Source: an uncultured Dehalococcoidales bacterium (GTDB taxonomy: Bacteria > Chloroflexota > Dehalococcoidia > GIF9 > UBA5629). From it: 64,000 nucleotides of DNA. Made by a program: the position numbers and the translations under genes. The notes under the pieces are model-generated. The model saw nothing but the letters and a program-made list of their open reading frames with translations. It did not search any database and was not told the DNA's origin. The number at the start of each line of letters is the position of its first letter. The stretch's first letter is position 1. Below are positions 2,131 through 49,831 of this stretch, piece by piece. The stretch covers positions 14,502 to 78,501 of the forward strand of contig CAZSED010000002.1 in NCBI GenBank assembly GCA_964605885.1, in the 5' to 3' direction.

Positions 2131-3408
2131 TTACCCGGCGGAAGAAAAGATATGCCTGGCCAGCATGGCCGTAAGCCCTGGATCGTAAGGCCCGGCCTCG
2201 ATGTTGGCCCTGCATTCTTCCAGTATCCTGTCGGCGTCCCCGCAGATGAAAAATTCCCGCAGCCGGTCTTCACTGCGTATACCCATGGCCTCACCTATCA
2301 CGGTGAGTATATTCTGTATCTGAAAGGGGTACCTGGACTGCAGAGAGATGAACTGAAAATGACAGCCCTGGCAAGCGTCTACCAGCGTCTCGGCGCCCGT
2401 CTTGAGCGCCTCCTCCAGGACCTGCCTCGCCATGGCGCGGCCGACAGCGGGCAGCTTGCGACTGGCCACCGCACCGCAGCACAAGGATTTGTCTCTTGCA
2501 TTAGCCATCTCCATCTGAGTCAGGCCGGGAATGGCCTTTAGTATCGTACGCAGCGAGGTTGTATCTCCCATCAGCCTGCTCATTGAACAGGGATCGTGCA
2601 GCGTGACATTCCTTTTGATAGGGTGGATGAACTTTATATCACTCACCCGGTTGGCCAGGAAATGGAACATCTCCTCATATTGAAAGGGAACCGGGCTAAC
2701 CTCATGGTCGAAGGCCGCTATCCGGCCGGCGCATTCGGCACAGCAAAAGATGACCTGCTCGGGTTTAAATGCAGCCAGAGCCGCCACCAGCTTATGGGCC
2801 AGGCGCTCTGCTACATCCAGGTCCACGCCTGCGTAACGTGCACCGCAGCAGAGCTCACCCCCGGCTACCAGAGCGAAGTCCAGTCCAAGCCGCTTAAAAA
2901 TTTCGCTTACCAGGTAGATCTTATCGGGCATCATTACCAGCGCACAGCCGGTGAAGATAACGATATCCTTTTCCCCGGGGTGGTCCGGCACGCTGCTCAG
3001 CCAGTGTTTCTCCTCCGGACTGACCTGCATGCTGGCCAGAATGTCCGGGATAAACAGGCTGTCTTCACCCAGCCGCAACTCCATTAACGGCCGGCGTTTC
3101 CCGGTGAGCCTTACCATTTCAAGCTGCAGCAGCTCTTGCATTACTACGGGGTCAATATCCAGCGGACAGGCATCACGACAGGACATGCAGTGTGCGCAGC
3201 TGGCCGACCTGATGGAGGCTTCTTCGCAAAGCGTCCCGTCCTTAAGAACGCCCATGACCTTTTCCTGTATATCGCAGGAGGATACCGATTTTAAAGCGGT
3301 CAGGGCAATGGCCGGGCAGGCTTCCACACAGGCGCCGCACAGGTTGCAGTCCTGTATATAATGCAGCTTCCTATCCTGGTATAGATTTCTGAGTGACATG
3401 TTTGGCAT
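2131..3408 (-). CDS. Heterodisulfide-reductase-D-like Fe-S protein with two 4Fe-4S ferredoxin motifs and two CCG domains (HdrD/GlcF-like)
   Basis: CxxCxxCxxxCP appears twice (CNLCGACVEACP, CAHCMSCRDACP), followed by Cys-rich CCG-type regions (CCGARYAG, CCGAVAS). No convincing SD; start chosen at an internal ATG. Confidence 0.6.
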   Translation of the reverse strand: MPNMSLRNLYQDRKLHYIQDCNLCGACVEACPAIALTALKSVSSCDIQEKVMGVLKDGTLCEEASIRSASCAHCMSCRDACPLDIDPVVMQELLQLEMVRLTGKRRPLMELRLGEDSLFIPDILASMQVSPEEKHWLSSVPDHPGEKDIVIFTGCALVMMPDKIYLVSEIFKRLGLDFALVAGGELCCGARYAGVDLDVAERLAHKLVAALAAFKPEQVIFCCAECAGRIAAFDHEVSPVPFQYEEMFHFLANRVSDIKFIHPIKRNVTLHDPCSMSRLMGDTTSLRTILKAIPGLTQMEMANARDKSLCCGAVASRKLPAVGRAMARQVLEEALKTGAETLVDACQGCHFQFISLQSRYPFQIQNILTVIGEAMGIRSEDRLREFFICGDADRILEECRANIEAGPYDPGLTAMLARHIFSSAG

Positions 3409-15167: not shown

Positions 15168-15818
15168 TTAACCGGCAGCGTCGCCGCTGCCGCCGGCCTT
15201 GCTCTCAGCCTGCGTCTGCCGGGCTGTTTTAAGCTCCTTGATTGCATGCTCCAATATGATTACAAATATGGCGATTCCCATGCCGTTGGCCACCATCATT
15301 GCCGGTATCGCCGTATAGACAACCTGCAGCGCATCATCGAAAGGACGGGCGATCAAGAGCGCCAGAACGCCGTGAAGCACCTCGACGAAGATGGCTGCCA
15401 GTATGGCGTAACCGATGCTGATGAGCTTTTTCTTGTTTATGAGGTAGATCAGTCCGCCGACCACGCCTGCCAGTATGGTGGCCAGTCCGCATGGTATGGC
15501 GGTGAACCCGCCCATGAAGTAGCGTTGCACGCCGCCTATAAGGCCAGCTCCCAGTCCGACCAGCGGGCCGGCCACAAGGCCGGCCACCAGCGGGCCGAGG
15601 TCCCTGATGCTGCTTATGGCCCCGCCGGGCAGCTCTATGCCCGTGTATGTCCCGAAGATGGAAAATGCGCCGAAGAGCGCCGCCAATAAGAGCAGGTCGT
15701 GCCGGCTGGCCGTCCTCAGCAGCGCCCTGCGGACGGATTCAATGTGGACGATGAGTTCAGCAAAGACATATATAAATACTTCTGTGGTGGCAAAAAGGCC
15801 CAAAATATTATGTATCAC
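15168..15818 (-). CDS. Stand-alone LytS/YhcK-type 5TM receptor (5TMR-LYT) domain membrane protein
   Basis: Five hydrophobic helices with GxxxG-rich packing typical of the LytS sensor domain; no kinase domain follows. Confidence 0.45.
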   Translation of the reverse strand: MIHNILGLFATTEVFIYVFAELIVHIESVRRALLRTASRHDLLLLAALFGAFSIFGTYTGIELPGGAISSIRDLGPLVAGLVAGPLVGLGAGLIGGVQRYFMGGFTAIPCGLATILAGVVGGLIYLINKKKLISIGYAILAAIFVEVLHGVLALLIARPFDDALQVVYTAIPAMMVANGMGIAIFVIILEHAIKELKTARQTQAESKAGGSGDAAG

Positions 15819-15953
15819 TTTGTTTACTTCCTGTATAGTTTGATTCCGGAACGCCGGCCAGCTTCCATTTTACTGTCACTCTTGCCGCCCGTGCAAAAGT
15901 TGGCTGCACGTCATCACGACCCCGATAGAATCGGGGGTGATGTAATCGGAGCG

Positions 15954-16250
15954 GCAATCTCCTTTCCATACGCCATTGCGAGGAGCCCGGAGGGCGACGC
16001 GGCAATCTCCTTTCCATACGCCATTGCGAGGAGCCCGGAGGGCGACGTGGCAATCTCCTTTCTACACGCCATTGCGAGGAGCCCGGAGGGCGACGTGGCA
16101 ATCTCCTTTCCGCACGCCATTGCGAGGAGCCCGGAGGGCGACGTGGCAATCTCCTTTCCACACGCCATTGCGAGGAGCCCGGAGGGCGACGCGGCAATCT
16201 CCTTTCCACACGCCATTGCGAGGAGCCCGGAGGGCGACGTGGCAATCTCC
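15954..16250. repeat. Near-perfect 48-bp tandem repeat of 6 copies plus a partial seventh
   Basis: The unit GCAATCTCCTTTCCAYACGCCATTGCGAGGAGCCCGGAGGGCGACGYG starts at 15954, 16002, 16050, 16098, 16146, 16194 and 16242. The unit carries the GTGGCAATCTCC / CATTGCGAGG core of the dispersed repeat family. Confidence 0.9.
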
Positions 16251-16390
16251 TGATCGAAGGCTACTCTTGTGCCCCAACTCTTTTCGCCTTGGTGAAGCCC
16301 ATGTCCGAGCAGCCCTTTATCTGCGGTAGTGCCATCGCAAGGTAAACAGCCAACCGTTCCTTTCTTATATTGAAACTGTTCCAACCAGAG

Positions 16391-26916: not shown

Positions 26917-26953
26917 TGGTGGCAGCGACTGGGATTGAACCAGTGACCAAGGG
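26917..26953 (-). repeat. Direct repeat of the 3' 37 nt of tRNA-Met (att-like partial tRNA copy)
   Basis: TGGTGGCAGCGACTGGGATTGAACCAGTGACCAAGGG is identical to 28181..28217, which is the tRNA 3' half including CCA. Confidence 0.85.
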
Positions 26954-27045: not shown

Positions 27046-28152
27046 TTGAGGGGGTTGAGTTGGTTTATGAAGAAGGCGCCCAGCAAGCGAAAAAAGACTC
27101 TCATACGACAAAAATATCAAGACTCCTTTGCTGATACACTGAAGAAAATTCCCTTAAACAAATTTACCGTTGAGGCCGCACTCGAAGTTATTCCTGCCAG
27201 TATCAGTAATGCTGTTTCACTTGTAGCTGATGAAACTATCGGTGTTGCCACTGGTGTAATTGCATACCATACCCTTGACTGGATGATAAGTACGTTTACC
27301 CATGTTTATGAAACGGGTGAAGCGCGCCTGTCTACCATATTTGGTGGAACTATACCAGACGCCACATATAATAGTGTTTCCGAATTTTGGGCTAAAGTTG
27401 AACAGCATGGTTTGTCTCACGGTGCACTCATAGAGATTACCGGACTGCTGTCACCATATGGACCGTTGACACCATCACATCCCATGTCTAGGCCAGGTTA
27501 CTCAATTGGTGGCTGGAAAAAAATGGGTGATTTAAAAGCAGATAGCACGGAAGAATACGATAATATGGACGCATTAATATATGGTGATCGTGTTATCCGC
27601 CTTTCTAAACCAAGATATAATACATACTATGCAGGGTTGTATGATGTCTATTACGGCTTGGCAAATGTTGCTATTCCACTTTATTTAGATACCCGGCATA
27701 CGCGTCACTTTTACCAATGGGGGCTGCCTGAACTATGGAAATTGCCTTTAGTTGGCGGAAAAATCGTTACATTAAAAGGTCGTTTACGGAAAATCTCGAA
27801 CTACTATTCCCAATTAAAAAAAGAAGTGCCGTCCAAATATCGAATGTTGCCTTCATATGGTTTGGAGGTTTTTGAGATAACTTATATGCATGAATCAGAC
27901 GGTATTACTCATATATCTGCCTCTATTGGCTGGGATGAAGAAAATCAGGAAAGAATGATGACCAATTATTTTAATATACAAGACAGACAAGAATTTTCTG
28001 TGTCCGAGCACCTGCTAGAAAAAACCAGAAAACAGAAAACCAATTTGCTGCTCTTCAATTATGATGATGTATCCTGTTTGAGTAAAGAGTGGAAACACAA
28101 ACTACCTAAATATAATGAACTACTTCAACCATGGTTAAGCGGTACAAAATAA
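27046..28152 (+). CDS. AT-rich orphan protein of unknown function (368 aa), cargo of the tRNA-flanked mini-island
   Basis: Hand-counted 60-bp samples are about 40% GC, against about 65% in neighbouring genes; no recognisable domain; lies exactly between the tRNA and its partial direct repeat. Confidence 0.55.
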   Translation: MRGLSWFMKKAPSKRKKTLIRQKYQDSFADTLKKIPLNKFTVEAALEVIPASISNAVSLVADETIGVATGVIAYHTLDWMISTFTHVYETGEARLSTIFGGTIPDATYNSVSEFWAKVEQHGLSHGALIEITGLLSPYGPLTPSHPMSRPGYSIGGWKKMGDLKADSTEEYDNMDALIYGDRVIRLSKPRYNTYYAGLYDVYYGLANVAIPLYLDTRHTRHFYQWGLPELWKLPLVGGKIVTLKGRLRKISNYYSQLKKEVPSKYRMLPSYGLEVFEITYMHESDGITHISASIGWDEENQERMMTNYFNIQDRQEFSVSEHLLEKTRKQKTNLLLFNYDDVSCLSKEWKHKLPKYNELLQPWLSGTK

Positions 28153-28180: not shown

Positions 28181-28255
28181 TGGTGGCAGCGACTGGGATT
28201 GAACCAGTGACCAAGGGCTTATGAGTCCCCTGCTCTACCGCTGAGCTACGCTGCC
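28181..28255 (-). tRNA. tRNA-Met, anticodon CAT (a lysidine Ile2-type cannot be excluded), with CCA encoded
   Basis: The reverse complement folds into a canonical cloverleaf: GGCAGCG-TA-GCTC-AGCGGTA-GAGC-A-GGGGA-CTCATAA-GCCCT-TGGTC-ACTGG-TTCAATC-CCAGT-CGCTGCC-A-CCA. Confidence 0.85.
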
Positions 28256-28515: not shown

Positions 28516-28645
28516 TACAGCCTCCCCAATCGATGCTATAAGGGATTATAGCACTGCCACGCTACCGCCCTCACCCTGCCCTCTCCCTAAAGGGCGAGGG
28601 TATTTATTTTTATAAGAGGGGCTGGCGCCCCTCTTAAACGCCTGT

Positions 28646-28694
28646 CATTTTCCTTCGCTCTGGAGATTGCCACGCCCCGTTAAAATCGGGGCTC
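28646..28694 (-). repeat. Nested-hairpin dispersed repeat (GTCATTGCGAG-CCCCGATTTTAACGGGGC-GTGGCAATCTCC) flanked by two copies of the palindrome TAAGAGGrGCTGrCGCCCCTCTTAAAC
   Basis: Read directly from sequence. The palindromes lie at about 28606-28634 and 28716-28744. Confidence 0.7.
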
Positions 28695-28903
28695 GCAATG
28701 ACATGTAAATATAAGAGGAGCTGACGCCCCTCTTAAACACTCCCAAGCCGTTCTGATTTATCTTCTATGTCCAAATCGCACCACGCGAGAACGCCACGCT
28801 TGGATGAGGCTGCTTTGACATGCTATTATTACTGGAGTAAAATATCCGGCAGTTTAATACTTATGCTCATGTGCGCATAAGTAGATAAGGATAGGTCAAG
28901 ACC

Positions 28904-29245
28904 ATGCGTGAGCTCCTCAAAGTCTTCAAAGCCCTGGCGGACGAAACCAGGCTGCGCATTCTCCACCTGCTGCTCGAAAGGGAAGCCTGCGTGCTGGAGA
29001 TCAAGCAGGCCATGCGCATCTCTCAGACCCGCGCCTCCCGCAACCTGGGTATACTGCACGACGCCGGGCTGCTCAAGGCCCGCCGCGAAGGCCCACTGGT
29101 ATTCTATTCACTGGATATGCGCTCCATCAAAAAGAACTGCGCCGGCCTGGACGAAGTCATCAAAGAAGCATTTGCCGGCGACCAGGCTGCCCAGCTCCAC
29201 CGTGAACGCCTCAAGAGGCCGGTGGCCAGGGCCACGGATAGATAG
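28904..29245 (+). CDS. ArsR/SmtB-family metalloregulatory transcriptional repressor
   Basis: ALADETRLRILHLL...CVLEI...SQTRASRNLGILHDAGLL HTH signature. Confidence 0.8.
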   Translation: MRELLKVFKALADETRLRILHLLLEREACVLEIKQAMRISQTRASRNLGILHDAGLLKARREGPLVFYSLDMRSIKKNCAGLDEVIKEAFAGDQAAQLHRERLKRPVARATDR

Positions 29246-29270
29246 AAGCAGATATTTAACTGCGCCAATA

Positions 29271-29299
29271 TTGACATTTGGCACTTTCGGTAGTTTAAT
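29271..29299 (+). promoter_or_regulatory. Sigma70-like promoter (TTGACA, 17-nt spacer, TTTAAT) upstream of mvhD
   Basis: Hexamers read directly, about 40 nt upstream of the 29339 ATG. Confidence 0.45.
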
Positions 29300-29338
29300 T
29301 TATAAGGCCTGTCGTCGGTCAAAATCTTTAATACTGAT

Positions 29339-29764
29339 ATGACAGATTTCGAGCCAAAGATCGTCGCCTTCCTGTGCAATTGGTGTTCTTACCGAGGCGC
29401 AGATCTGGCAGGCACCTCCCGAATGAAATGCGCCGCCAACGTGCGCGCCATCCGCGTCATGTGCTCCGGCAGAGTTGAACCAGCCTTCATACTGCGCGCC
29501 TTCGAGCTGGGCGCCGACGGCGTCCTTGTCCTGGGCTGCCATCCCGGCGACTGCCACTACGCCGAGGGCAACTACAAGGCCCTGCGCCGCATGATGCTGC
29601 TCAAGAAAATGCTCCCCCAGCTCGGCATAGAAGAGGACAGGTTCCAGCTGGACTGGGTCTCCGCCTCCGAGGGCGACCGCTTCTCACATATTGTCAACGA
29701 GATGACCGAGAAGGTCAGGGCGCTCGGCCCCTTCAAGCCCAAACAGGAGGCCAAAGTTGGCTAA
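29339..29764 (+). CDS. mvhD: Methyl-viologen-reducing hydrogenase delta subunit (MvhD family Fe-S protein)
   Basis: KIVAFLCNWCSY and GCHPGDCHY motifs; 141 aa. Confidence 0.75.
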   Translation: MTDFEPKIVAFLCNWCSYRGADLAGTSRMKCAANVRAIRVMCSGRVEPAFILRAFELGADGVLVLGCHPGDCHYAEGNYKALRRMMLLKKMLPQLGIEEDRFQLDWVSASEGDRFSHIVNEMTEKVRALGPFKPKQEAKVG

Positions 29765-30719
29765 GCTCAAGGTCGCCCTTTACTGGGCCGCCTCCTGCGG
29801 CGGCTGCGAAATTGCCACTCTGCTCATAGCTGAAAAGATACTCAAGCTGGCCGAGGCCGCCGACATCGTCTTCTGGCCCGTGGCCATCGACGCCAAGTAC
29901 GCCGACGTGGAGAAGATGGACGACAAGAGCATCGACGCCTGCCTGTTCAACGGCGCCATCCGCAACTCCGAGAACGAGCACCTGGCCAAGCTGCTGCGCC
30001 AGAAATCAAAGATAATGATCGCCTACGGCTCCTGCGCCGTGGAAGGCTGCATTCCCGGCCTGGCCAATTTCTATAACCGCAAAATGGTGATGGACACCGC
30101 TTACCTGGACACCGCCTCCACCGACAACCCGGATAAAATCATCCCGCAGACCAGCATCAAGGTCCCCGAGGGCGAGCTTGAATTGCCCGAGCTGTGGGAG
30201 ACCGTCAGGACGCTGGCCCAGACCGTGGACGTGGATTACTTCGTCCCGGGCTGCCCGCCCGAGGAGCGCACCACCTGGCTGGCGCTGGAGGGCCTCATAA
30301 GCGGCAAGCTGCCGCCCAAGGGCTCCTTCCTGGTGCACCCGGCCAACGCAGTCTGCAACGATTGCCCGCGCGTCAAGCACGAGAAGAAGGTCAAGACCTT
30401 CCACAGGCCTTACGAGCTGGCGCCCGAGCCCGATAAATGCCTGCTGGAGCAGGGCTTCCTCTGCTACGGCGTGGCCACACGCGGCGGCTGCGGCGCCCCC
30501 TGCCCCCAGGCCAACATGCCCTGCACCGGATGCTACGGCCCGGTCGAGGGCGTGCGCGACCAGGGCAGCCACTTCCTCTCGGCTCTTGCTTCAATCATCG
30601 ATTCCAACGATCCCGACGAGATACAGAAGATATTGGACGGCATCCCCGACCCCGCCGGCACCTTCTACCGCTACAGCCTGGCCGATTCCATGATCAACAG
30701 GGCAAGGATCAACCCATGA
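29757..30719 (+). CDS. mvhG: [NiFe] hydrogenase small subunit, group 3c (MvhG-like)
   Basis: N-terminal CGGCE proximal-cluster motif; C-terminal GCPP and CxxC clusters; 320 aa. Confidence 0.75.
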   Translation: MAKLKVALYWAASCGGCEIATLLIAEKILKLAEAADIVFWPVAIDAKYADVEKMDDKSIDACLFNGAIRNSENEHLAKLLRQKSKIMIAYGSCAVEGCIPGLANFYNRKMVMDTAYLDTASTDNPDKIIPQTSIKVPEGELELPELWETVRTLAQTVDVDYFVPGCPPEERTTWLALEGLISGKLPPKGSFLVHPANAVCNDCPRVKHEKKVKTFHRPYELAPEPDKCLLEQGFLCYGVATRGGCGAPCPQANMPCTGCYGPVEGVRDQGSHFLSALASIIDSNDPDEIQKILDGIPDPAGTFYRYSLADSMINRARINP

Positions 30720-32176
30720 AGAAGATAGTGATTGACCCCATCACCAGGCTGGAAGGCCACGGCAAGATAACCATCTTCCTTAAGGACGACGGCAGCGTGG
30801 CCAACGTCTACCTGCAGATACCCGAGCTGCGCGGCTTCGAGCAGTTCAGCGTGGGCCGCCCGGTCGAGGACATGCCCCAGATCACGCAGCGCATCTGCGG
30901 CGTCTGCCCCGAGGCGCACCACATGGCCTCCGTCAAGGCGCTGGACGACATGTTCCACGTCGAGCCCACCAGCACAGCCAAAAAGCTGCGCGAGCTGTTC
31001 TACTCCGCATTTTACGTCACCGACCACACCACGCATTTTTATATTCTGGCTGGCCCCGATTTCGTCATGGGCCCGGACGCACCCGTGGCCGAGCGCAACA
31101 TACTGGGCGTCATCGCCAAGGTAGGCCTGGAGCTGGGCGGGCAGGTCATAAACACCCGCAAGGAGAACCACTGGGTAATACAGGCTATAGGCGGAAGGCA
31201 GATACACCCGGTCTTCGGCCTGCCGGGCGGCGTGAGCAAGCGCATCAGCGAGGATGAGCGCAAGCAGATCGAGGACATCGCCAAGAGGTCGGTGGAGTTC
31301 GGCAGGACCTCGCTCAAGGTCTTCAATGACATCGTGCTCAAAAACAAGGCCTACGTGGATTTAATTGTCAGCGACGCCTACACCCACAAGACCTACTATA
31401 TGGGCCTGGTGGACGATAAGAACAGGGTCAATTTTTACGACGGCAAGGTAAGGGTGGTGGACCCCGACGGCAAGGAGTTCGTCAAGTACGCTCCCAATGA
31501 GTATCTGGATAACGTCGGCGAGCACGTGGAGCCCTGGAGCTACACCAAGTTCACCTTCCTCAAGAAGGTCGGCTGGAAGGGCTTCACGGACGGCAAGGGC
31601 AGCGGCGTTTACCGCGCCACCCCGCTCTCCCGCCTGAACGCGGCCGAGGGCATGGCCACGCCGCTGGCGCAGGAGGAATACCAGAAGATGTACTCCACGC
31701 TGGGCGGCAAGCCTGTCCACCATACGCTGGCCACGCACTGGGCGCGCCTGATAGAGCTGCTCTATGCCGCTGAGCGGATGCTGGAGCTCAGCCAGGACAA
31801 GGAGATAACCGGCCCCAACATCAGGAACTTCCCCACGGCCAAACCGACCGAGGGCGTGGGCATCGTCGAGGCGCCGCGCGGCACGCTGACGCACCACTAC
31901 ACGGCCGACGAGAAGGGCTGCATCAAGACCTGCAACCTGATCGTGGGCACAACCAACAACCAGGCGGCGCTGTTCATGTCGGTTAAGAAGGCTGCCCAGG
32001 CGCTGATCAAGCCGGGCAAGGATATACCCGAGGCGCTGCTTAACCAGATAGAGATGGCCTGGCGGCCATACGATCCATGCATGTCCTGTTCCACGCACAC
32101 GCTGCCCGGGACGCTCCCGCTGGACGTGAGCGTCTACGACGCAGAGGGCAATTTAGTCAAGCACCTGTCCCGCTGA
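30716..32176 (+). CDS. mvhA: [NiFe] hydrogenase large subunit, group 3c (MvhA-like)
   Basis: N-terminal RICGVCP (L1) and C-terminal DPCMSCSTH (L2) Ni-binding motifs; ATGA overlap with the small subunit. Confidence 0.8.
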   Translation: MKKIVIDPITRLEGHGKITIFLKDDGSVANVYLQIPELRGFEQFSVGRPVEDMPQITQRICGVCPEAHHMASVKALDDMFHVEPTSTAKKLRELFYSAFYVTDHTTHFYILAGPDFVMGPDAPVAERNILGVIAKVGLELGGQVINTRKENHWVIQAIGGRQIHPVFGLPGGVSKRISEDERKQIEDIAKRSVEFGRTSLKVFNDIVLKNKAYVDLIVSDAYTHKTYYMGLVDDKNRVNFYDGKVRVVDPDGKEFVKYAPNEYLDNVGEHVEPWSYTKFTFLKKVGWKGFTDGKGSGVYRATPLSRLNAAEGMATPLAQEEYQKMYSTLGGKPVHHTLATHWARLIELLYAAERMLELSQDKEITGPNIRNFPTAKPTEGVGIVEAPRGTLTHHYTADEKGCIKTCNLIVGTTNNQAALFMSVKKAAQALIKPGKDIPEALLNQIEMAWRPYDPCMSCSTHTLPGTLPLDVSVYDAEGNLVKHLSR

Positions 32177-32295
32177 GTTTCTAAAGAAATTTAACTTAAT
32201 AGGTTTTTTACACATCTGACGTCTGTTTATGAACATATGTAAATATATGCTGTATATCAGCTTGTCAATACATAAAATAACTGAAGGAGTTGTGT

Positions 32296-33333
32296 ATGCA
32301 GAACCGGGTGATCTCTAAAAAGGACCTGGCGGCATTCGTCGACGCCCTGATCAAGACGAAGGATGCCGGGGAAGTGGTCGGCATCAAGGCCAAGGACGGT
32401 AAGTTCAACTTCGGCCCGCTGGCCAGCGCAGCCGAGCTGCGCCTGGACTACGACATTTCCCTGACGCCGCCCAAGAAGTACTTCTTCCCGCAGATCGAGA
32501 CGGTGCTGAAGTTCAAGCTCGGCGCGGACCCCAAGCCCGAGCCGGTGGTAGCTGAAAAAACGCTGTGCGTGGTGGGTGTGCACCCCTTCGATATCCGGGG
32601 CATAATGCTGTTCGACGCCGTTTACGGCGGCAAGGACCCCGACCCCAACTACTTCCTCAAGCGCAATAACGCCACCATCATCGGCGTGGACTGTCTGAAC
32701 CCCAACCCCAAGTCCTTCGCTGCCAGCATGGGCACCGCCACGGTCAACGAAGGCTTCGACCTGATGCTCACCGATATCGGCGATGCCTATTTCGTCACCG
32801 TGGGCACAACCAAAGGCGAGAACTTGCTCAAGAAGCACGCCAAGGCCAAGGACGCCACAGAGGCCGACGAGAAGAAGCGCGATAAGGCCCGCGCTGACGC
32901 CCTGAAGAAATACCAGGTATCGCTCAAGATGAAGGCAGAGGAGATTCCGGCCCTGCTTACCGCCAACTGGGAGAGCAAGGTGTTCGCCGATAAGGCCTCC
33001 ACCTGCTTCAGCTGCGGCTCCTGCGTGATGGTCTGCCCCACCTGCGTATGCTTCGACGTACAGGACGACCCGGCGCTCAACCTCAAGGAGGGCGAGCGCT
33101 ACCGCCGCTGGGACGCCTGCATGCTGACCGAGTTCGCCAAGGTGGCCAGCGGCGAGAACTTCCGCGAGCACAAGGAGCAGAGGTTCCGCCACCGCATGTA
33201 CCGCAAGGGCAAGTACCTGCTGGAACGGTACAAGCAGCTGGGCTGCGTGGGCTGCGGCAGATGCGGCATCGTCTGCCTGGCGCAGATCGCCCTCCCGGCT
33301 GAGACATACAACCTGCTGAAGGAGGCAAAGTAA
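32296..33333 (+). CDS. hyhB: Group 3b (sulf)hydrogenase beta subunit: 4Fe-4S dicluster protein (HydB/AsrA-like)
   Basis: CFSCGSCVMVCPTC and CVGCGRCGIVC ferredoxin motifs; GAAGGAG RBS; first gene of a beta-gamma-delta-alpha run. Confidence 0.7.
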   Translation: MQNRVISKKDLAAFVDALIKTKDAGEVVGIKAKDGKFNFGPLASAAELRLDYDISLTPPKKYFFPQIETVLKFKLGADPKPEPVVAEKTLCVVGVHPFDIRGIMLFDAVYGGKDPDPNYFLKRNNATIIGVDCLNPNPKSFAASMGTATVNEGFDLMLTDIGDAYFVTVGTTKGENLLKKHAKAKDATEADEKKRDKARADALKKYQVSLKMKAEEIPALLTANWESKVFADKASTCFSCGSCVMVCPTCVCFDVQDDPALNLKEGERYRRWDACMLTEFAKVASGENFREHKEQRFRHRMYRKGKYLLERYKQLGCVGCGRCGIVCLAQIALPAETYNLLKEAK

Positions 33334-34176
33334 ATGGTGATGCAGCTAACGGCCAAGCAATCCATTCACCTGCCGCGCACCGCCGAGCTCGTCCGCGTGG
33401 AGACGCTCAGCGCCCGCGAGAAGGTATTTGAGTTCAAGTTCGACGACGGCAAGGAGCTGGGACACAGGCCCGGCCAGTTCGTCGAGATTTCCATCTTCGG
33501 CGTGGGAGAGGCGCCCATCTCCATCACATCCTCGCCGACCCACAAGGGCTCGTTCGAGCTGGCCGTGCGCGCCACGGGCAGCCTGACCAACAAGCTTCAC
33601 ACGCTGGAGAAGGGCGCCAAAGTTGGCATCCGCGGCCCGTTCGGCAACGGCTTCCCGCTGGACACGCTCAAGGGCAAGGACATACTCTTCGTGGCCGGCG
33701 GCATCGGCCTGTTCCCGCTGCGCTCGCTGATCAATTACGTGCTGGACAACCGCAAGGACTTCGGCGAGGTCACCACGCTCTTCGGTTGCCGCTCGCCTCA
33801 GGAACGTCTGTTCCTCGGCCAGCTGGCCGATTGGAACGTCTGCAAGGACATGTGCTTTATAGAGACGGTGGACACCTGCTCGGACGATTCGTGGAAGGGC
33901 AATGTGGGCGTTATCACCACGCTCTTCCCCAAGATATCCTTCGATCCGGCTAAAACTTACGCCGTGGTGGTGGGCCCGCCCATCATGTACCGCTTCGTCA
34001 TCGCCGAGTGCGTCAAGAAGGGCCTGGCTGACGACCACATCATCATGTCTCTGGAGCGCAGGATGAAATGCGGCGTGGGCAAGTGCGGCCACTGCCAGAT
34101 AAACGGCCTCTACTGCTGCCAGGAGGGGCCCGTCTTCACCTACGCACAGGTCAAGTCACTAAAGGAGGCAGTATAA
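33334..34176 (+). CDS. hyhG: Group 3b hydrogenase gamma subunit: FAD/NAD(P)-binding with C-terminal 2Fe-2S (HydG/AsrB-like)
   Basis: RPGQFVEI FAD-binding region, GGIGLFPLRS NAD fold, C-terminal CGVGKCGHC. Confidence 0.7.
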   Translation: MVMQLTAKQSIHLPRTAELVRVETLSAREKVFEFKFDDGKELGHRPGQFVEISIFGVGEAPISITSSPTHKGSFELAVRATGSLTNKLHTLEKGAKVGIRGPFGNGFPLDTLKGKDILFVAGGIGLFPLRSLINYVLDNRKDFGEVTTLFGCRSPQERLFLGQLADWNVCKDMCFIETVDTCSDDSWKGNVGVITTLFPKISFDPAKTYAVVVGPPIMYRFVIAECVKKGLADDHIIMSLERRMKCGVGKCGHCQINGLYCCQEGPVFTYAQVKSLKEAV

Positions 34177-34914
34177 ATGAAACCCAGAGTCGCTTTCTTC
34201 GATTTTACGGGCTGCGAAGGCTGCCAGCTTGAGGTGCTCAACTTCTACATGGAAGTGGTGGACCTGATCGGCGCAGTCGATATAGTTGAGTTCCGCGAGG
34301 CCAGCTCCGACCACTCCGACGAGTATGACATCGCCTTCATCGAGGGCAGCCAGAGCACGCAAAAGGACGTGGAGAGGCTGCTGAAAATACGGGAGAGGGC
34401 CAAGATACTGGTGGCGCTGGGCGCCTGCTCCTGCACGGGCGGTGTGAACGCGCTCAAGAACCGCTTCCCCATGGAGGAGAACCTGAAGCTGGTCTACGGC
34501 GACGCCGCCAAGTATTACAACACCATACCCATCAAGCCTACCGACGCCTACGTAAAGGTGGACGCCTACATCCCCGGCTGCCCGCCCATCAGGGGCGAGG
34601 TCGTCCGCCTGGTCAAGTGCCTGCTGACCGGCAAGAAGTTCGAACCCTACAAGGACCCGGTCTGCGCGGAGTGCAAGCTCAATGAGAACATCTGCGCCTT
34701 CGAACGCGGCGAGTACTGCCTGGGCCCGGTCACACGCGGCGGCTGTAATTCAGTCTGCGTGAATGCCGGCAGGAAATGTTGGGGCTGCCGCGGGCCGGTG
34801 GACGAGCCCAACGTCAACGCCGAGAAGGAGCTGCTGGCCAGGTACGGCATGACCGTTGATGACATGCTGCTGCAGCTCAAGCTCTTCAACGGAGCACTGG
34901 AGGTTTCAAAATAA
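34177..34914 (+). CDS. hyhS: Group 3b [NiFe] hydrogenase small (delta) subunit
   Basis: FTGCEGCQ N-terminal cluster motif, GCPP, and C-terminal Cys clusters. Confidence 0.7.
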   Translation: MKPRVAFFDFTGCEGCQLEVLNFYMEVVDLIGAVDIVEFREASSDHSDEYDIAFIEGSQSTQKDVERLLKIRERAKILVALGACSCTGGVNALKNRFPMEENLKLVYGDAAKYYNTIPIKPTDAYVKVDAYIPGCPPIRGEVVRLVKCLLTGKKFEPYKDPVCAECKLNENICAFERGEYCLGPVTRGGCNSVCVNAGRKCWGCRGPVDEPNVNAEKELLARYGMTVDDMLLQLKLFNGALEVSK

Positions 34915-36221
34915 TGACGACCAAAGAAGTAAATTTCACCGTACATCACGTTGCACGCGTGGAGGGACACGGCAATATAATTGTCAACGCCAAAGACGGC
35001 AAGATCGAGGAGTGCAAGTGGGAGATACCGGAGTCTCCGCGCTTCTTCGAGTCAATGCTGCGCGGCCTGGACTACCGTGACGTGAACTTCATCGCCCCGC
35101 GCATCTGCGGCATCTGCGCAGTGGCGCACGCCACCGCATCCATCGAGGCCGCCGAGAAGGCCTTTAACGTCAAGCTCACCGAGCAGGCGCAGCTTGTGCG
35201 CCAGCTGCTGTTTGACGCCGAGACCGTCACCAGCCATGTGCTGCACACCTATTTCCTGGTGGCCCCCGATTTCTTCGGGGTAGGCAGCGTTATACCGCTG
35301 GCGGCCACACACACGGACGTGGTGCTGCGGGCGCTGCGCCTGAAAAAGGTGGCCAATGACTGGGCCGACATGCTGTGCGGCCGCAAGACGCATCCCATCT
35401 CCCAGGTGGCAGGCGGCTTCGTGAAGTGGCCGACCATCGAGCAGCTCAAGTGGCTCAAGCAGGCGCTTGAAGGGGACTACATGAAAGACCTGGAGATCAC
35501 AGTCGACCTCTTCAAGACGCTGAAGTTCCCCGATTTCGTTCGCGAGACCGAGTATATAGCCATAACCAAACCCGACGAGTATGCCTTTGTGAGCGGGTCG
35601 ACCGGTATGATCGGCTCCAGCGACGCCAAGCCGACGCCGGTAAACGATTACCTCAAGGTTACCAACGAGTTCTGCGTCCCGCAGTCGACCGCCAAGTGGA
35701 CAAAGCACCTCAGGGAGTCTTACCAGGTGGGCGCGCTGGCGCGCTTCAACGTCAACTATGACAGGCTGCATCCCAGGGCCAAGAAGGTCGCTCAGGCCCT
35801 GGGCATCAAGGCCCCCTGCTATAACCCCTTCTTCATCAGCGTGGCTCAGCTGGTTGAGATCATGCACGCCGTCGAGAACAGCATCATGATACTGGACAAG
35901 CTGCTGAGCAAGGGCATCAAGCAGGAGAAGCCCGAGGTCAAGGTCAAGGCCGGCCGGGGCGTGGGCTGCGTGGAAGCGCCGCGCGGCATCCTGTTCCACG
36001 ACTATACCTTTGACGACAACGGCAAGCTGATAGCCGCCAACATCATCATCCCCACCAACGAGAACCACAACAGCATCCAGCACGACTTCGAGAAGCTGCT
36101 GCCGGAGGTCATTGACCAGCCGCAGGACAAGATAAAGCTCACCATGGAGATGCTGGTCAGGGCCTATGACCCCTGCATCTCATGCTCCACCCACATGCTG
36201 GAAGTGAAGTTCAAGGAATAG
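34914..36221 (+). CDS. hyhL: Group 3b [NiFe] hydrogenase large (alpha) subunit
   Basis: RICGICAVAH (L1) and DPCISCSTH (L2) motifs. Confidence 0.8.
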   Translation: MTTKEVNFTVHHVARVEGHGNIIVNAKDGKIEECKWEIPESPRFFESMLRGLDYRDVNFIAPRICGICAVAHATASIEAAEKAFNVKLTEQAQLVRQLLFDAETVTSHVLHTYFLVAPDFFGVGSVIPLAATHTDVVLRALRLKKVANDWADMLCGRKTHPISQVAGGFVKWPTIEQLKWLKQALEGDYMKDLEITVDLFKTLKFPDFVRETEYIAITKPDEYAFVSGSTGMIGSSDAKPTPVNDYLKVTNEFCVPQSTAKWTKHLRESYQVGALARFNVNYDRLHPRAKKVAQALGIKAPCYNPFFISVAQLVEIMHAVENSIMILDKLLSKGIKQEKPEVKVKAGRGVGCVEAPRGILFHDYTFDDNGKLIAANIIIPTNENHNSIQHDFEKLLPEVIDQPQDKIKLTMEMLVRAYDPCISCSTHMLEVKFKE

Positions 36222-36228
36222 AATCTGT

Positions 36229-36365
36229 CATTGCGAGGCCCGATTTCATCGGGCCGTGGCAATCTCCCTGCCGCAAAACAAGAATAAAAGGGGCCGCCCG
36301 ATGGGCGGCCCTTGTTTGTTTTAAATGTCATTGCGAGCCCCCGATGCAATCGGCGCTCATCGCAT
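36229..36365 (+). repeat. Two further copies of the nested-hairpin dispersed repeat (GTCATTGCGAGG-CCCGATTTCATCGGGCC-GTGGCAATCTCC at about 36229, and a 3'-truncated copy at about 36326)
   Basis: Read directly; the cores are shared with 28646..28694 and with the 48-bp tandem unit. Confidence 0.7.
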
Positions 36366-36479
36366 TTTCCCAACTTGACCGACAGGTTCAAGCGGGTGTA
36401 CCTTCCTGGCTCTTTCTTTTTATGTCACCTTAAAGTAGAATTCAGGAAAGTTACAGCTTCATACAGGTGAATCAGCAAG

Positions 36480-48805: not shown

Positions 48806-49831
48806 ATGATGTCCTTTAAGAAATTTACCGTGCTCAGCGCCGTAGTGATAATCGCCCTGAGCAGCCTGGCAGACGGCTGCTCTGCTCAGCAGGCACAGCC
48901 GCCCGCCGGGCCGGACGGCTCGCAGCCATCCAATAAGCCCCCGCTGACGCTGCCTGTAACCCCTACAGAGAACAAAAGCGCTATCACACCGCCGCAATCA
49001 TCGGCACTGCCCAACTTCAGCGGCAAGCTGGTGTTCAACTCGGGCACGGGAGACCAGGGCGGGCCGCAGATATATACATCAACCGCCAACGGCACCAACT
49101 GGACCAAGCTGACCAAGGGCAATGTAGGCGGTGACCGCTTCCCCAAATGGTCGCCTGACGGCAGCAAAATTGTCTTCTTCTCAGACCGTGACGGCACGCA
49201 GCAGATATATGTCATGAACGCCGACGGCAGCAACCAGGTAAGGCTGACCAACAATACTGCCAACGACCTGCTGCCATCCTGGTCTCCGGACGGCAAAAAG
49301 ATTGCCTTTACCTCGAGCCGTGACAATAACGAGCAGATATACGTGATGAACGCTGACGGCAGCAACCAGGCAAGGCTGACCAAAAACTCCGACAACGATG
49401 CGGCACCCGTCTGGTCACCTGACGGCAAGAAGATCGCCTTCCAGAGCGACCGTGACCAGAACACCGAGATCTACGTGATGAACGCCGACGGCAGCAACCA
49501 GGTCAACATCACCTCCGACGCCGCGGTGGATGATTTCCCGGCGTGGTCGCCGGACGGCAAGAAGATCCTCTTCCAGTCCAATGACAGCGGCACCTTCCAG
49601 ATCTGCGTTATCAATCCCGACGGCACAGGCCGGCAGCGGCTGACCTTCGGCCAGAACGAAAATAAATACCCGGACTGGTCTCCGGACGGCAGCAAGATAG
49701 TCTTCTATTCCAAGCGCGACTGCGATAACGATAACGGCGAGATATATATTATGAACGCCGACGGCAGCGGGCAGACCCGCATTACCCACAGCGACTGCAC
49801 GGACGCGGGCCTGGCCTCCTGGCACAATTAA
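48806..49831 (+). CDS. Periplasmic WD40-like beta-propeller (PD40/TolB-like) repeat protein
   Basis: Six to seven repeats of the type WSPDGKKIAFxSxRDGNxEIYVMNADGSNQxRLT; signal peptide. Confidence 0.75.
   Translation: MMSFKKFTVLSAVVIIALSSLADGCSAQQAQPPAGPDGSQPSNKPPLTLPVTPTENKSAITPPQSSALPNFSGKLVFNSGTGDQGGPQIYTSTANGTNWTKLTKGNVGGDRFPKWSPDGSKIVFFSDRDGTQQIYVMNADGSNQVRLTNNTANDLLPSWSPDGKKIAFTSSRDNNEQIYVMNADGSNQARLTKNSDNDAAPVWSPDGKKIAFQSDRDQNTEIYVMNADGSNQVNITSDAAVDDFPAWSPDGKKILFQSNDSGTFQICVINPDGTGRQRLTFGQNENKYPDWSPDGSKIVFYSKRDCDNDNGEIYIMNADGSGQTRITHSDCTDAGLASWHN

Follow-up and report, generated by a model that had tools for sequence, protein, structure and literature searches.

A nested-hairpin repeat near a Dehalococcoidales hydrogenase operon and its relation to the CGTC/TGTC-tagged REP superfamily

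In a 64-kb stretch of DNA from an uncultured Dehalococcoidales bacterium (contig CAZSED010000002.1; hereafter the window), several intergenic spacers contain short nested hairpins with shared arms, some of them next to a double [NiFe]-hydrogenase operon. Do these hairpins serve the neighboring genes, or are they copies of a mobile repeat? We found that the element is compact and multicopy, with a core that covaries between invariant arms, and that it turns over at orthologous sites, forms dimers and arrays and is not accompanied by an adjacent enzyme. The copies probably represent a non-coding, non-autonomous palindromic repeat of the repetitive extragenic palindromic (REP) type, namely the Dehalococcoidia form of the CGTC/TGTC-tagged superfamily, which would be mobilized in trans as a single-stranded DNA hairpin and would be selfish or near-neutral.

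Copies of the repeat in the window

From the source genome the 64-kb window was covered, to which the counts in this section refer. Both arms of the repeat (consensus Y-GTCATTGCGAG ... CGWR-GCAATCTC) are present where the initial annotation had placed them. The combined pattern CATTGCGAG-N5-35-GGCAATC gave eight matches, while 0.00 were expected from 100 shuffles. With at most one mismatch, the arms GTCATTGCGAG and GTGGCAATCTCC were each found nine times, compared to 1.4 and 0.45 expected matches, respectively. Altogether, about ten units at three loci were counted per 64 kb, and every copy is located between Pfam-supported genes (Table 1). The four sites listed by the initial annotation were all recovered, two of them as complete and two as decayed copies, but a tandem array of six 48-bp units had been overlooked. 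Its description of a dispersed, REP-like nested hairpin in intergenic DNA, with three copies (A, B and C) flanking the hydrogenase operon, agrees with our data. The copy that had been regarded as 3′-truncated (copy B) possesses a 3′ arm which is decayed rather than missing.

Table 1. Positions of the repeat copies and of other features in the window.
Feature	Position	Strand	Description
Copy A, complete	36226-36267	+	Tag T-GTC; outer stem ATTGC/GCAAT; internal loop GAG/CGTG; inner hairpin GCCCGAT-TTC-ATCGGGC; tail CTCC
Copy B, decayed	36326-36370	+	Tag and 5′ arm TGTCATTGCGAG intact; inner hairpin CCGAT-GCA-ATCGG (CCCCCGATGCAATCGG); extra bases
Copy C, complete, inverted	28662-28703	-	TGTCATTGCGAG-CCCCG-ATTTTAA-CGGGG-CGTGGCAATCTCC
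Copy D, degenerate	15909-15962	+	CGTC tag; inner hairpin CCCCGAT-AGA-ATCGGGG; 3′ arm GCGGCAATCTCC runs into the array
Tandem array	15953-16251	+	6.2 units of 48 bp; 96% matches; score 556
Lineage-specific 3′ extension TGATCGAAGG	16251-16260	+	After the last array unit
Sequence related to TGATCGAAGG	28652-28661		Reverse complement; after copy C
Open reading frame across the array	15699-16253	+	
Open reading frame across the array	15808-16245	-	
Open reading frame across the array	15914-16384	-	
Open reading frame across the array	15976-16329	+	
Double [NiFe]-hydrogenase operon	28904-36221		7.3 kb
Hydrogenase large-subunit gene	34914-36221		PF00374; TAG stop codon
Intrinsic terminator	36289-36322	+	Canonical; not a family member; 11-bp GC stem (36289-36313), then GTTTGTTTT
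28-nt direct repeat ATAAGAGGRGCTGRCGCCCCTCTTAAAC	28612-28639 and 28711-28738		Hairpin-forming; 26/28 identical
Stray TGTCATT	28643-28649		Faces copy C
tRNA-Met	28181-28255	-	
37-nt direct repeat of the tRNA-Met 3′ part	26917-26953 and 28181-28217		Exact
Open reading frame	27046-28152	+	368 aa
Coding repeats	49141-49790		About five of 132 bp (~44 aa each)

Copy A begins 5 nt past the stop codon of the hydrogenase large-subunit gene and in front of the terminator; the TAG is followed by AATC-TGTCATTGCGAG-GCCCGATTTCATCGGGC-CGTGGCAATCTCC. Its fold was stable with RNA parameters (-20.6 kcal/mol, z -3.0) as well as with DNA parameters (-12.5, z -4.2). Copy C, which resides upstream of the operon and downstream of tRNA-Met, is 90% identical to copy A over 42 nt (fold z -2.5), and its inner stem shows a compensatory swap from G-C to C-G. 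In the degenerate copy D (-22 kcal/mol, z -2.2) the outer stem has been altered on both sides in compensation (CATCAC...GTGATG). The 3′ arm of copy B reads GCATTTTCC in place of GCAATCTCC, and the fold of this copy was not better than that of shuffled sequences (z -1.2). Copies A, B and C have the tag TGTC; copy D has CGTC, and the array units have CGCC. Inverted dimers of units were not found inside the window.

Copy D leads straight into the array, each unit of which comprises the full two-armed element GCCATTGCGAG-GAGCCCGGAGGGCGAC-GTGGCAATCTCC and a 9-nt spacer, TTTCCACAC. The array units have a shorter inner helix than single copies, with a GGA triloop and a tandem mismatch, G.A/A.G. An array of clustered regularly interspaced short palindromic repeats (CRISPR) was rejected, since its units are separated by near-identical 9-nt spacers (TTTCCAYAC) and repeat as a whole, over 48 bp, at 96%. 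The last unit is followed by the lineage-specific extension TGATCGAAGG, a relative of which is also found after copy C, while copies in related Dehalococcoidia are followed by GGCAATCCTTTGATCGAAGG; the 3′ extension common to copies of the lineage can be given as TTTGATCGAAGG. Moreover, approximately 9 nt past the 3′ arm are common to copy A and the array spacer. As the copies share sequence past the 3′ arm, the copied unit may run slightly beyond the hairpin.

Four mechanically predicted open reading frames (ORFs) of 117-184 aa, not all in one frame, cross the array. All four are almost certainly spurious and correspond to the type of repeat-derived 'hypothetical protein' that is seeded in automatic annotation.

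Two further observations were made around copy C. The direct repeat ATAAGAGGRGCTGRCGCCCCTCTTAAAC brackets 71 nt containing this copy. It occurs twice in the window and was not present in any of 253 fetched loci; the pair may have arisen by local duplication or may represent a target duplication of unusual length. The stray TGTCATT facing copy C could be the remnant of a dimer partner.

Anatomy, distribution and turnover of the unit

Sequence collections were scanned with the pattern GAGATTGC-N5-35-CTCGCAATGRC. The two arms were detected in at least 120 viral or metagenomic contigs of IMG/VR and in at least 120 loci from species-representative genomes; all anatomy, neighbor and pair counts given below were drawn from these listed loci. 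A control in which each arm was reversed, thus keeping the same composition, disclosed three matches in the whole viral collection. Very many further copies exist in public collections, so the resemblance between the copies noticed initially is not coincidental. Among the matches listed were 348 copies, of which 256 are unique. The genome matches listed were all bacterial and belong to about 25-30 phylum-level groups, comprising Chloroflexota (many), Planctomycetota, Nitrospirota, Desulfobacterota, Bacteroidota, Firmicutes, Patescibacteria, Atribacterota, Zixibacteria, Omnitrophota, Armatimonadota, Alpha-, Gamma- and Campylobacterota-type proteobacteria, Rickettsiales, Leptospirales, Margulisbacteria and others. 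Flavobacterium, Chryseobacterium, Mucilaginibacter, Sporomusa and Chloroflexus are cultured genera among the matches listed. In an annotated plasmid collection the element was intergenic and unannotated on replicons of Methylosinus trichosporium OB3b, Methylocystis, Novosphingobium, Calothrix, Trichormus, Halomonas and Legionella, and it was absent from 5,426 complete E. coli genomes. The arms are not lineage-specific but near-identical across most bacterial phyla, bacteria of the Candidate Phyla Radiation and phage contigs.

Approximately 34 of the viral loci L001-L120 (including L002, L004, L005, L006, L007, L012, L032, L034, L077 and L083) share one set of capsid, portal and terminase genes. 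Therefore, one group of related tailed phages carries REP units in its intergenic spacers.

Five parts make up the unit. An unpaired 5′ tag (Y-GTC) is followed by the outer stem, which is fixed and has 5 bp (ATTGC/GCAAT), and by a conserved, purine-rich internal loop (GAG/CGWR). The inner hairpin varies freely, and the short tail (CTC or CCA) is again unpaired. Unit lengths of 26-54 nt were recorded, with maxima at 28, 34 and 38 nt. In 84% of the unique copies, CGAA, CGTG or CGCG directly precedes the 3′ arm. At the 5′ side, position -1 is occupied by T (65%) or C (27%), followed by the invariant GTC. Conservation stops sharply at the ends of the unit, with an upstream bias at position -1 only and none downstream.

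Evidence for a conserved structure came from covariation. In the 38-nt class (31 unique, ungapped copies), both sides were changed in six of the seven inner pairs. We counted 52 compensated cells, while shuffled alignments gave 15±3 (none of 500 reached 52) and pairing with a slid partner gave 9-20. The inner structure is under selection. The outer arms had been fixed by the search pattern and are hence uninformative on covariation of the outer stem among the collected copies. This stem covaries in copy D and in the sibling families ATTCCC/GGGAAT and ATTCCG/CGGAAT, as compared with ATTGC/GCAAT. The sibling families occur in the same contigs (25 matches versus two in the reversed-sequence control), and GTCATT...AATC is constant across all of them and the element.

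The fold is markedly better on the tag-bearing strand. The single copies in the window form nested hairpins with an inner stem of 8-9 bp; their folding energies lay significantly below those of shuffles, whether RNA or DNA parameters were used (z -2.5 to -4.2). Mismatches of the purine-purine type (281) outnumbered pyrimidine-pyrimidine mismatches (79), G.A and A.G being by far the commonest; the asymmetry between G.T (69) and A.C (45) is modest when taken alone. Among 189 single-hairpin folds, 57 have C-GNA-G triloops, more than any other loop class.

The copies are predominantly intergenic (66%, while about 18% of the DNA is intergenic). Single units are the commonest state. Close pairs (up to 200 nt apart) comprised 28 tag-outside, 3 tag-inside and 28 tandem arrangements. 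Partial copies that have kept the 5′ arm often lie directly upstream of a full copy (L108, L115, L126), a pattern resembled by the placement of copy B near copy A.

To what extent the unit is gained and lost can be seen in related Dehalococcoidia, which harbor one to four copies per 21 kb and share the arrangement of tRNA-Met, helix-turn-helix gene, FlpD and double [NiFe]-hydrogenase operon; the hydrogenase of the window is 85-86% identical to proteins from Dehalococcoidia metagenome-assembled genomes (MAGs), while a look-up of its exact sequence gave no entry. At the downstream end of the operon, these relatives exhibit the stop codon, about 20 nt and the terminator without any element, and it is this spacer that contains copy A in the window. 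In the spacer between the tRNA gene and the operon, the number of copies differs between genomes (three, one or zero). At the orthologous position, L241 (3780-3860) has a copy with the long inner hairpin CCCGATAGAATCGGG, while the copy in L247/L248 (3770-3870) has a CGAAG mini-hairpin and is joined by an added minimal unit, GGCATTGC-TTCA-GGCAATCC. Judging from these sequences, the arms remain constant, whereas the inner module as a whole is exchanged or lost. Filled and empty sites were also found in related phage contigs. Empty sites seemed to retain TGTC, a hint that we regard as too weak for any claim.

Because relatives with the same operon lack the downstream copy, the adjacency of the element to the hydrogenase operon is incidental. 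Copies A and C are inverted, with their tags pointing inward, on either side of the operon and near a tRNA gene. This bracketing is probably a coincidence and not a composite mobile unit, since the relatives possess the hydrogenase operon without copy A.

Relatives of the repeat and its possible mobilization

Two superfamilies of REPs, GTAG-tagged and CGTC-tagged, have been distinguished by Di Nocera, De Gregorio & Rocco (2013, BMC Genomics 14:522; PMC3733652). According to the text of this paper, the tag of the CGTC class is often TGTC (also CCTC), the stems almost invariably begin with A-T, T-A and measure 8-9 bp with loops of 4-5 nt, the unpaired tail has 3 nt (approximately CCA), tag-outside ('HH') dimers predominate while tag-inside dimers are rare, and clusters are rare as well. 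The authors report the class from five phyla, with Neisseria dRS3 and Rickettsia RPE-4 and RPE-6 as members, mention no associated transposase, and give Chloroflexi for GTAG repeats only (PMC3733652).

The element shares with this class the unpaired 5′ tag Y-GTC, the stem base ATT...AAT (also in the sibling families), a short unpaired tail, the intergenic location, the excess of tag-outside over tag-inside dimers (28:3) and the lack of a transposase flanked by repeats. In the window and in most phyla this tail reads CTC(C), and in Novosphingobium and Methylosinus it reads CCAG. In Novosphingobium aromaticivorans, a species named for CGTC repeats in PMC3733652, and in Methylosinus, the ATTGCGAG element reads CGTCATTGCGAG...GCAATCCAGG and forms tag-outside dimers; these alphaproteobacterial copies possess the canonical CGTC tag and the CCA tail. 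Furthermore, classical CGTC members (TGTCATTCCCGC...GCGGGAATCCA) are located on the same contigs as the element. Unlike the published repeats, the element is nested, with a 5-bp outer stem, an internal loop and a hypervariable inner hairpin in 26-54 nt, and does not qualify as a simple hairpin. Tandem arrays are common, and the element extends to about 25-30 phylum-level groups and phage contigs. The motif ATTGC is absent from the text and supplements of PMC3733652, and literature searches with arm strings and repeat-encoded peptides yielded nothing relevant. The initial annotation had not recognized the consensus in any characterized REP family; it fits the CGTC/TGTC-tagged superfamily. The element thus belongs to an already described, mechanistically orphan superfamily, from whose published members it differs in architecture and whose published distribution it exceeds.

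The element also resembles the E. coli REP/bacterial interspersed mosaic elements and Pseudomonas REPINs (REP doublets forming hairpins) in size, in its tagged imperfect hairpin, in intergenic or 3′-untranslated region (3′-UTR) sites and in the formation of inverted dimers and arrays, and for GTAG REPs, too, action on a folded single DNA strand is presumed. These repeats have the tag GTAG and a species-specific consensus, whereas the arms of the element cross phyla, and their cognate REP-associated tyrosine transposase (RAYT) gene is flanked by repeats, which was not seen for the element; the latter is moreover absent from E. coli. The subterminal hairpins of IS200/IS605 are likewise imperfect, with unpaired bases, one-strand recognition and offset cleavage, and the approximately 9 nt shared by copy A and the array beyond the 3′ arm are what offset 3′ cleavage predicts. 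The IS200/IS605 hairpins flank a transposase gene (and tnpB) as a left and right pair, while the units of the element are solitary and gene-less.

Might the repeat nevertheless be a classical REP or REPIN that is moved by a cognate RAYT, a Y1 HUH transposase encoded once elsewhere in the genome? Such a repeat, too, combines an imperfect hairpin with an unpaired tag of four nucleotides and occurs in inverted dimers and arrays. A single-copy gene is also rarely caught in 8-kb flanks, so its absence is weak evidence. A search for such a partner, as suggested by the initial annotation, was made with IS608 TnpA and E. coli RAYT sequences and provides a lead only. It revealed no RAYT/Y1 gene in the window and one Y1 gene in 1.9 Mb of loci. 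This gene (L208, 3110-3469) encodes a truncated IS200-like protein (PF01797, verified) of an Oscillospiraceae MAG and lies 2.5 kb from an element. It contains a perfect 28-nt inverted pair of GTAG-tagged hairpins (3211-3238, 3328-3355) and thus represents a decayed RAYT accompanied by a REP type of its own; the YGTC element is present in the same genome. The tag YGTC instead of GTAG and, in PMC3733652, the finding that RAYT genes of CGTC-positive species are never flanked by CGTC repeats and that no transposase is given for this class make a cognate RAYT improbable to us.

Far less probable still, and hardly worth maintaining, is an origin from terminal inverted repeats of an insertion sequence (IS), i.e. 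a miniature inverted-repeat transposable element. The tag-outside dimers look superficially like such elements. Single units are, however, the commonest form, conservation ends exactly at the unit, target-site duplications were not seen, and no full-length IS with YGTCATTGCGAG arms as ends was found. Distant inverted copies bracket ordinary genes, namely glycosyltransferases (on a 2.2-kb segment of a Patescibacteria contig) or hydrogenases, and not transposases. The 1,660 proteins neighboring the copies contained no transposase cluster; their clusters were a phage capsid/portal/terminase module and ubiquitous ABC and response-regulator families, among which no enzyme stood out as a candidate. 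A DinB-like gene adjoined the element in three loci, but these represent only two lineages, and the association was taken as chance. The initial annotation had named known IS ends as the finding that would overturn its reading, which therefore withstands this objection.

Neisseria dRS3 has been reported as a target of phages and of IS110, and E. coli REPs likewise as insertion targets. The element could similarly be maintained as a recognition or landing site, either for IS110-type elements or phages or for a nucleoid or topology protein. The arms are invariant although the inner stem is free to vary, a tRNA-Met integration hot spot lies next to the element in relatives as well as in the window, and the element is present in phage contigs. 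Against this stand the lack of an IS or prophage junction abutting any window copy and the patchy distribution with absence from E. coli, which argues against a core chromosomal role, and a target role would leave the multiplication of the element unexplained. We therefore give this explanation little credit.

Somewhat more can be said for a primary function in RNA, by which a 3′-UTR hairpin would stabilize the upstream mRNA or modulate termination or translation; some E. coli REPs have been shown to act on mRNA stability, termination or translation. Copy A lies within a transcribed 3′-UTR, copies in named genomes were found 15-22 nt past stop codons, the window copies are strong hairpins, and a weak sense bias exists (70 copies sense and 48 antisense to a confident upstream gene, i.e. 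60:40, p about 0.05). Yet about 40% of the copies are transcribed as the other strand though the tag-bearing strand folds much better, which is hard to reconcile with a primarily RNA-level function. Copies also reside in divergent spacers, inverted dimers and tandem arrays, and the copy is missing in relatives with the same operon. A role as intrinsic terminator, which the initial annotation had considered, is unlikely, as the element is followed by CCCTGCCGC and no T-run and as a separate, canonical terminator follows 22 nt downstream of copy A. This hairpin, situated between copies A and B (-27.6 kcal/mol, z -5.4), was the only one found by the terminator scan. Rfam at the gathering threshold disclosed only a tRNA in the window and no family matching the element; permissive scans gave weak matches driven by the terminator hairpin. 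Thus, a primary RNA function is unlikely in our opinion, and copy A merely contributes a hairpin to the hydrogenase 3′-UTR.

We therefore favor, with some reserve, the non-autonomous REP-type repeat introduced above. The tag-bearing DNA strand would fold and be recognized and copied as a single strand by a trans-acting enzyme encoded elsewhere, and the element would persist as selfish or near-neutral DNA. The better fold of the tag strand together with the mixed orientation is what an HUH-type or similar enzyme acting on single-stranded DNA hairpins would produce. Locally, a copy would add a stable hairpin to a co-transcribed mRNA, as may be the case for copy A in front of the real terminator, while copies C and D and the array would just occupy spacers.

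Several points weigh against this interpretation. We infer the action on single-stranded DNA from analogy and from the strand asymmetry, which may partly be inherited sequence and not independent selection. Under standard nearest-neighbor parameters, shuffled sequences folded just as well as the array unit and the common forms of 29 and 35 nt. In DNA, GNA triloops and tandem G.A pairs are extra stable, a stability that the nearest-neighbor energy model does not reproduce. The intergenic and orientation figures rest on crude longest-ORF gene calls, and the sense bias leaves room for some RNA-level benefit. Presence and absence at orthologous sites could reflect deletion instead of insertion, and alignments of filled and empty sites were too diverged to fix insertion junctions or a target motif to the nucleotide. 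Finally, the ATTGCGAG stem, compared by text and supplements, may be one of the four published CGTC families.

Neighboring features and implications

Two observations concern other parts of the window. The 37-nt direct repeats of the tRNA-Met 3′ part enclose 1.26 kb with one ORF, whose product had no match in Pfam, PHROGs or NCBIfam. The pair looks like an att-type integration footprint without a recognizable integrase. The coding repeats at 49 kb contain the motif ...WSPDGKKI.F...D...IY.MNADGSNQ..., and by this motif their product looks like a beta-propeller (PD40/TolB-like) repeat protein.

For the window itself, the odd intergenic hairpins and the 300-bp array would be explained as selfish repeats. 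The hairpins should not be read as regulators of the hydrogenase, and ORFs of the array (e.g., 15699-16253) should not be called. Beyond this genome, such elements are likely the source of many conserved-looking 'hypothetical proteins' in metagenome annotation.

CGTC-type REPs have been orphans since 2013, as a mobilizing enzyme is not known for them. The breadth of the element across phyla, combined with its clear absences, provides a contrast for the search for this enzyme. It is conceivable, though we put it forward only tentatively, that the YGTCATT...AATC frame marks the substrate of a very widespread enzyme other than RAYT that copies or processes tagged single-stranded DNA hairpins. If this is true, the presence and absence of the element across phyla (absent in E. 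coli, abundant in Chloroflexota) would make the enzyme findable by phylogenetic profiling.

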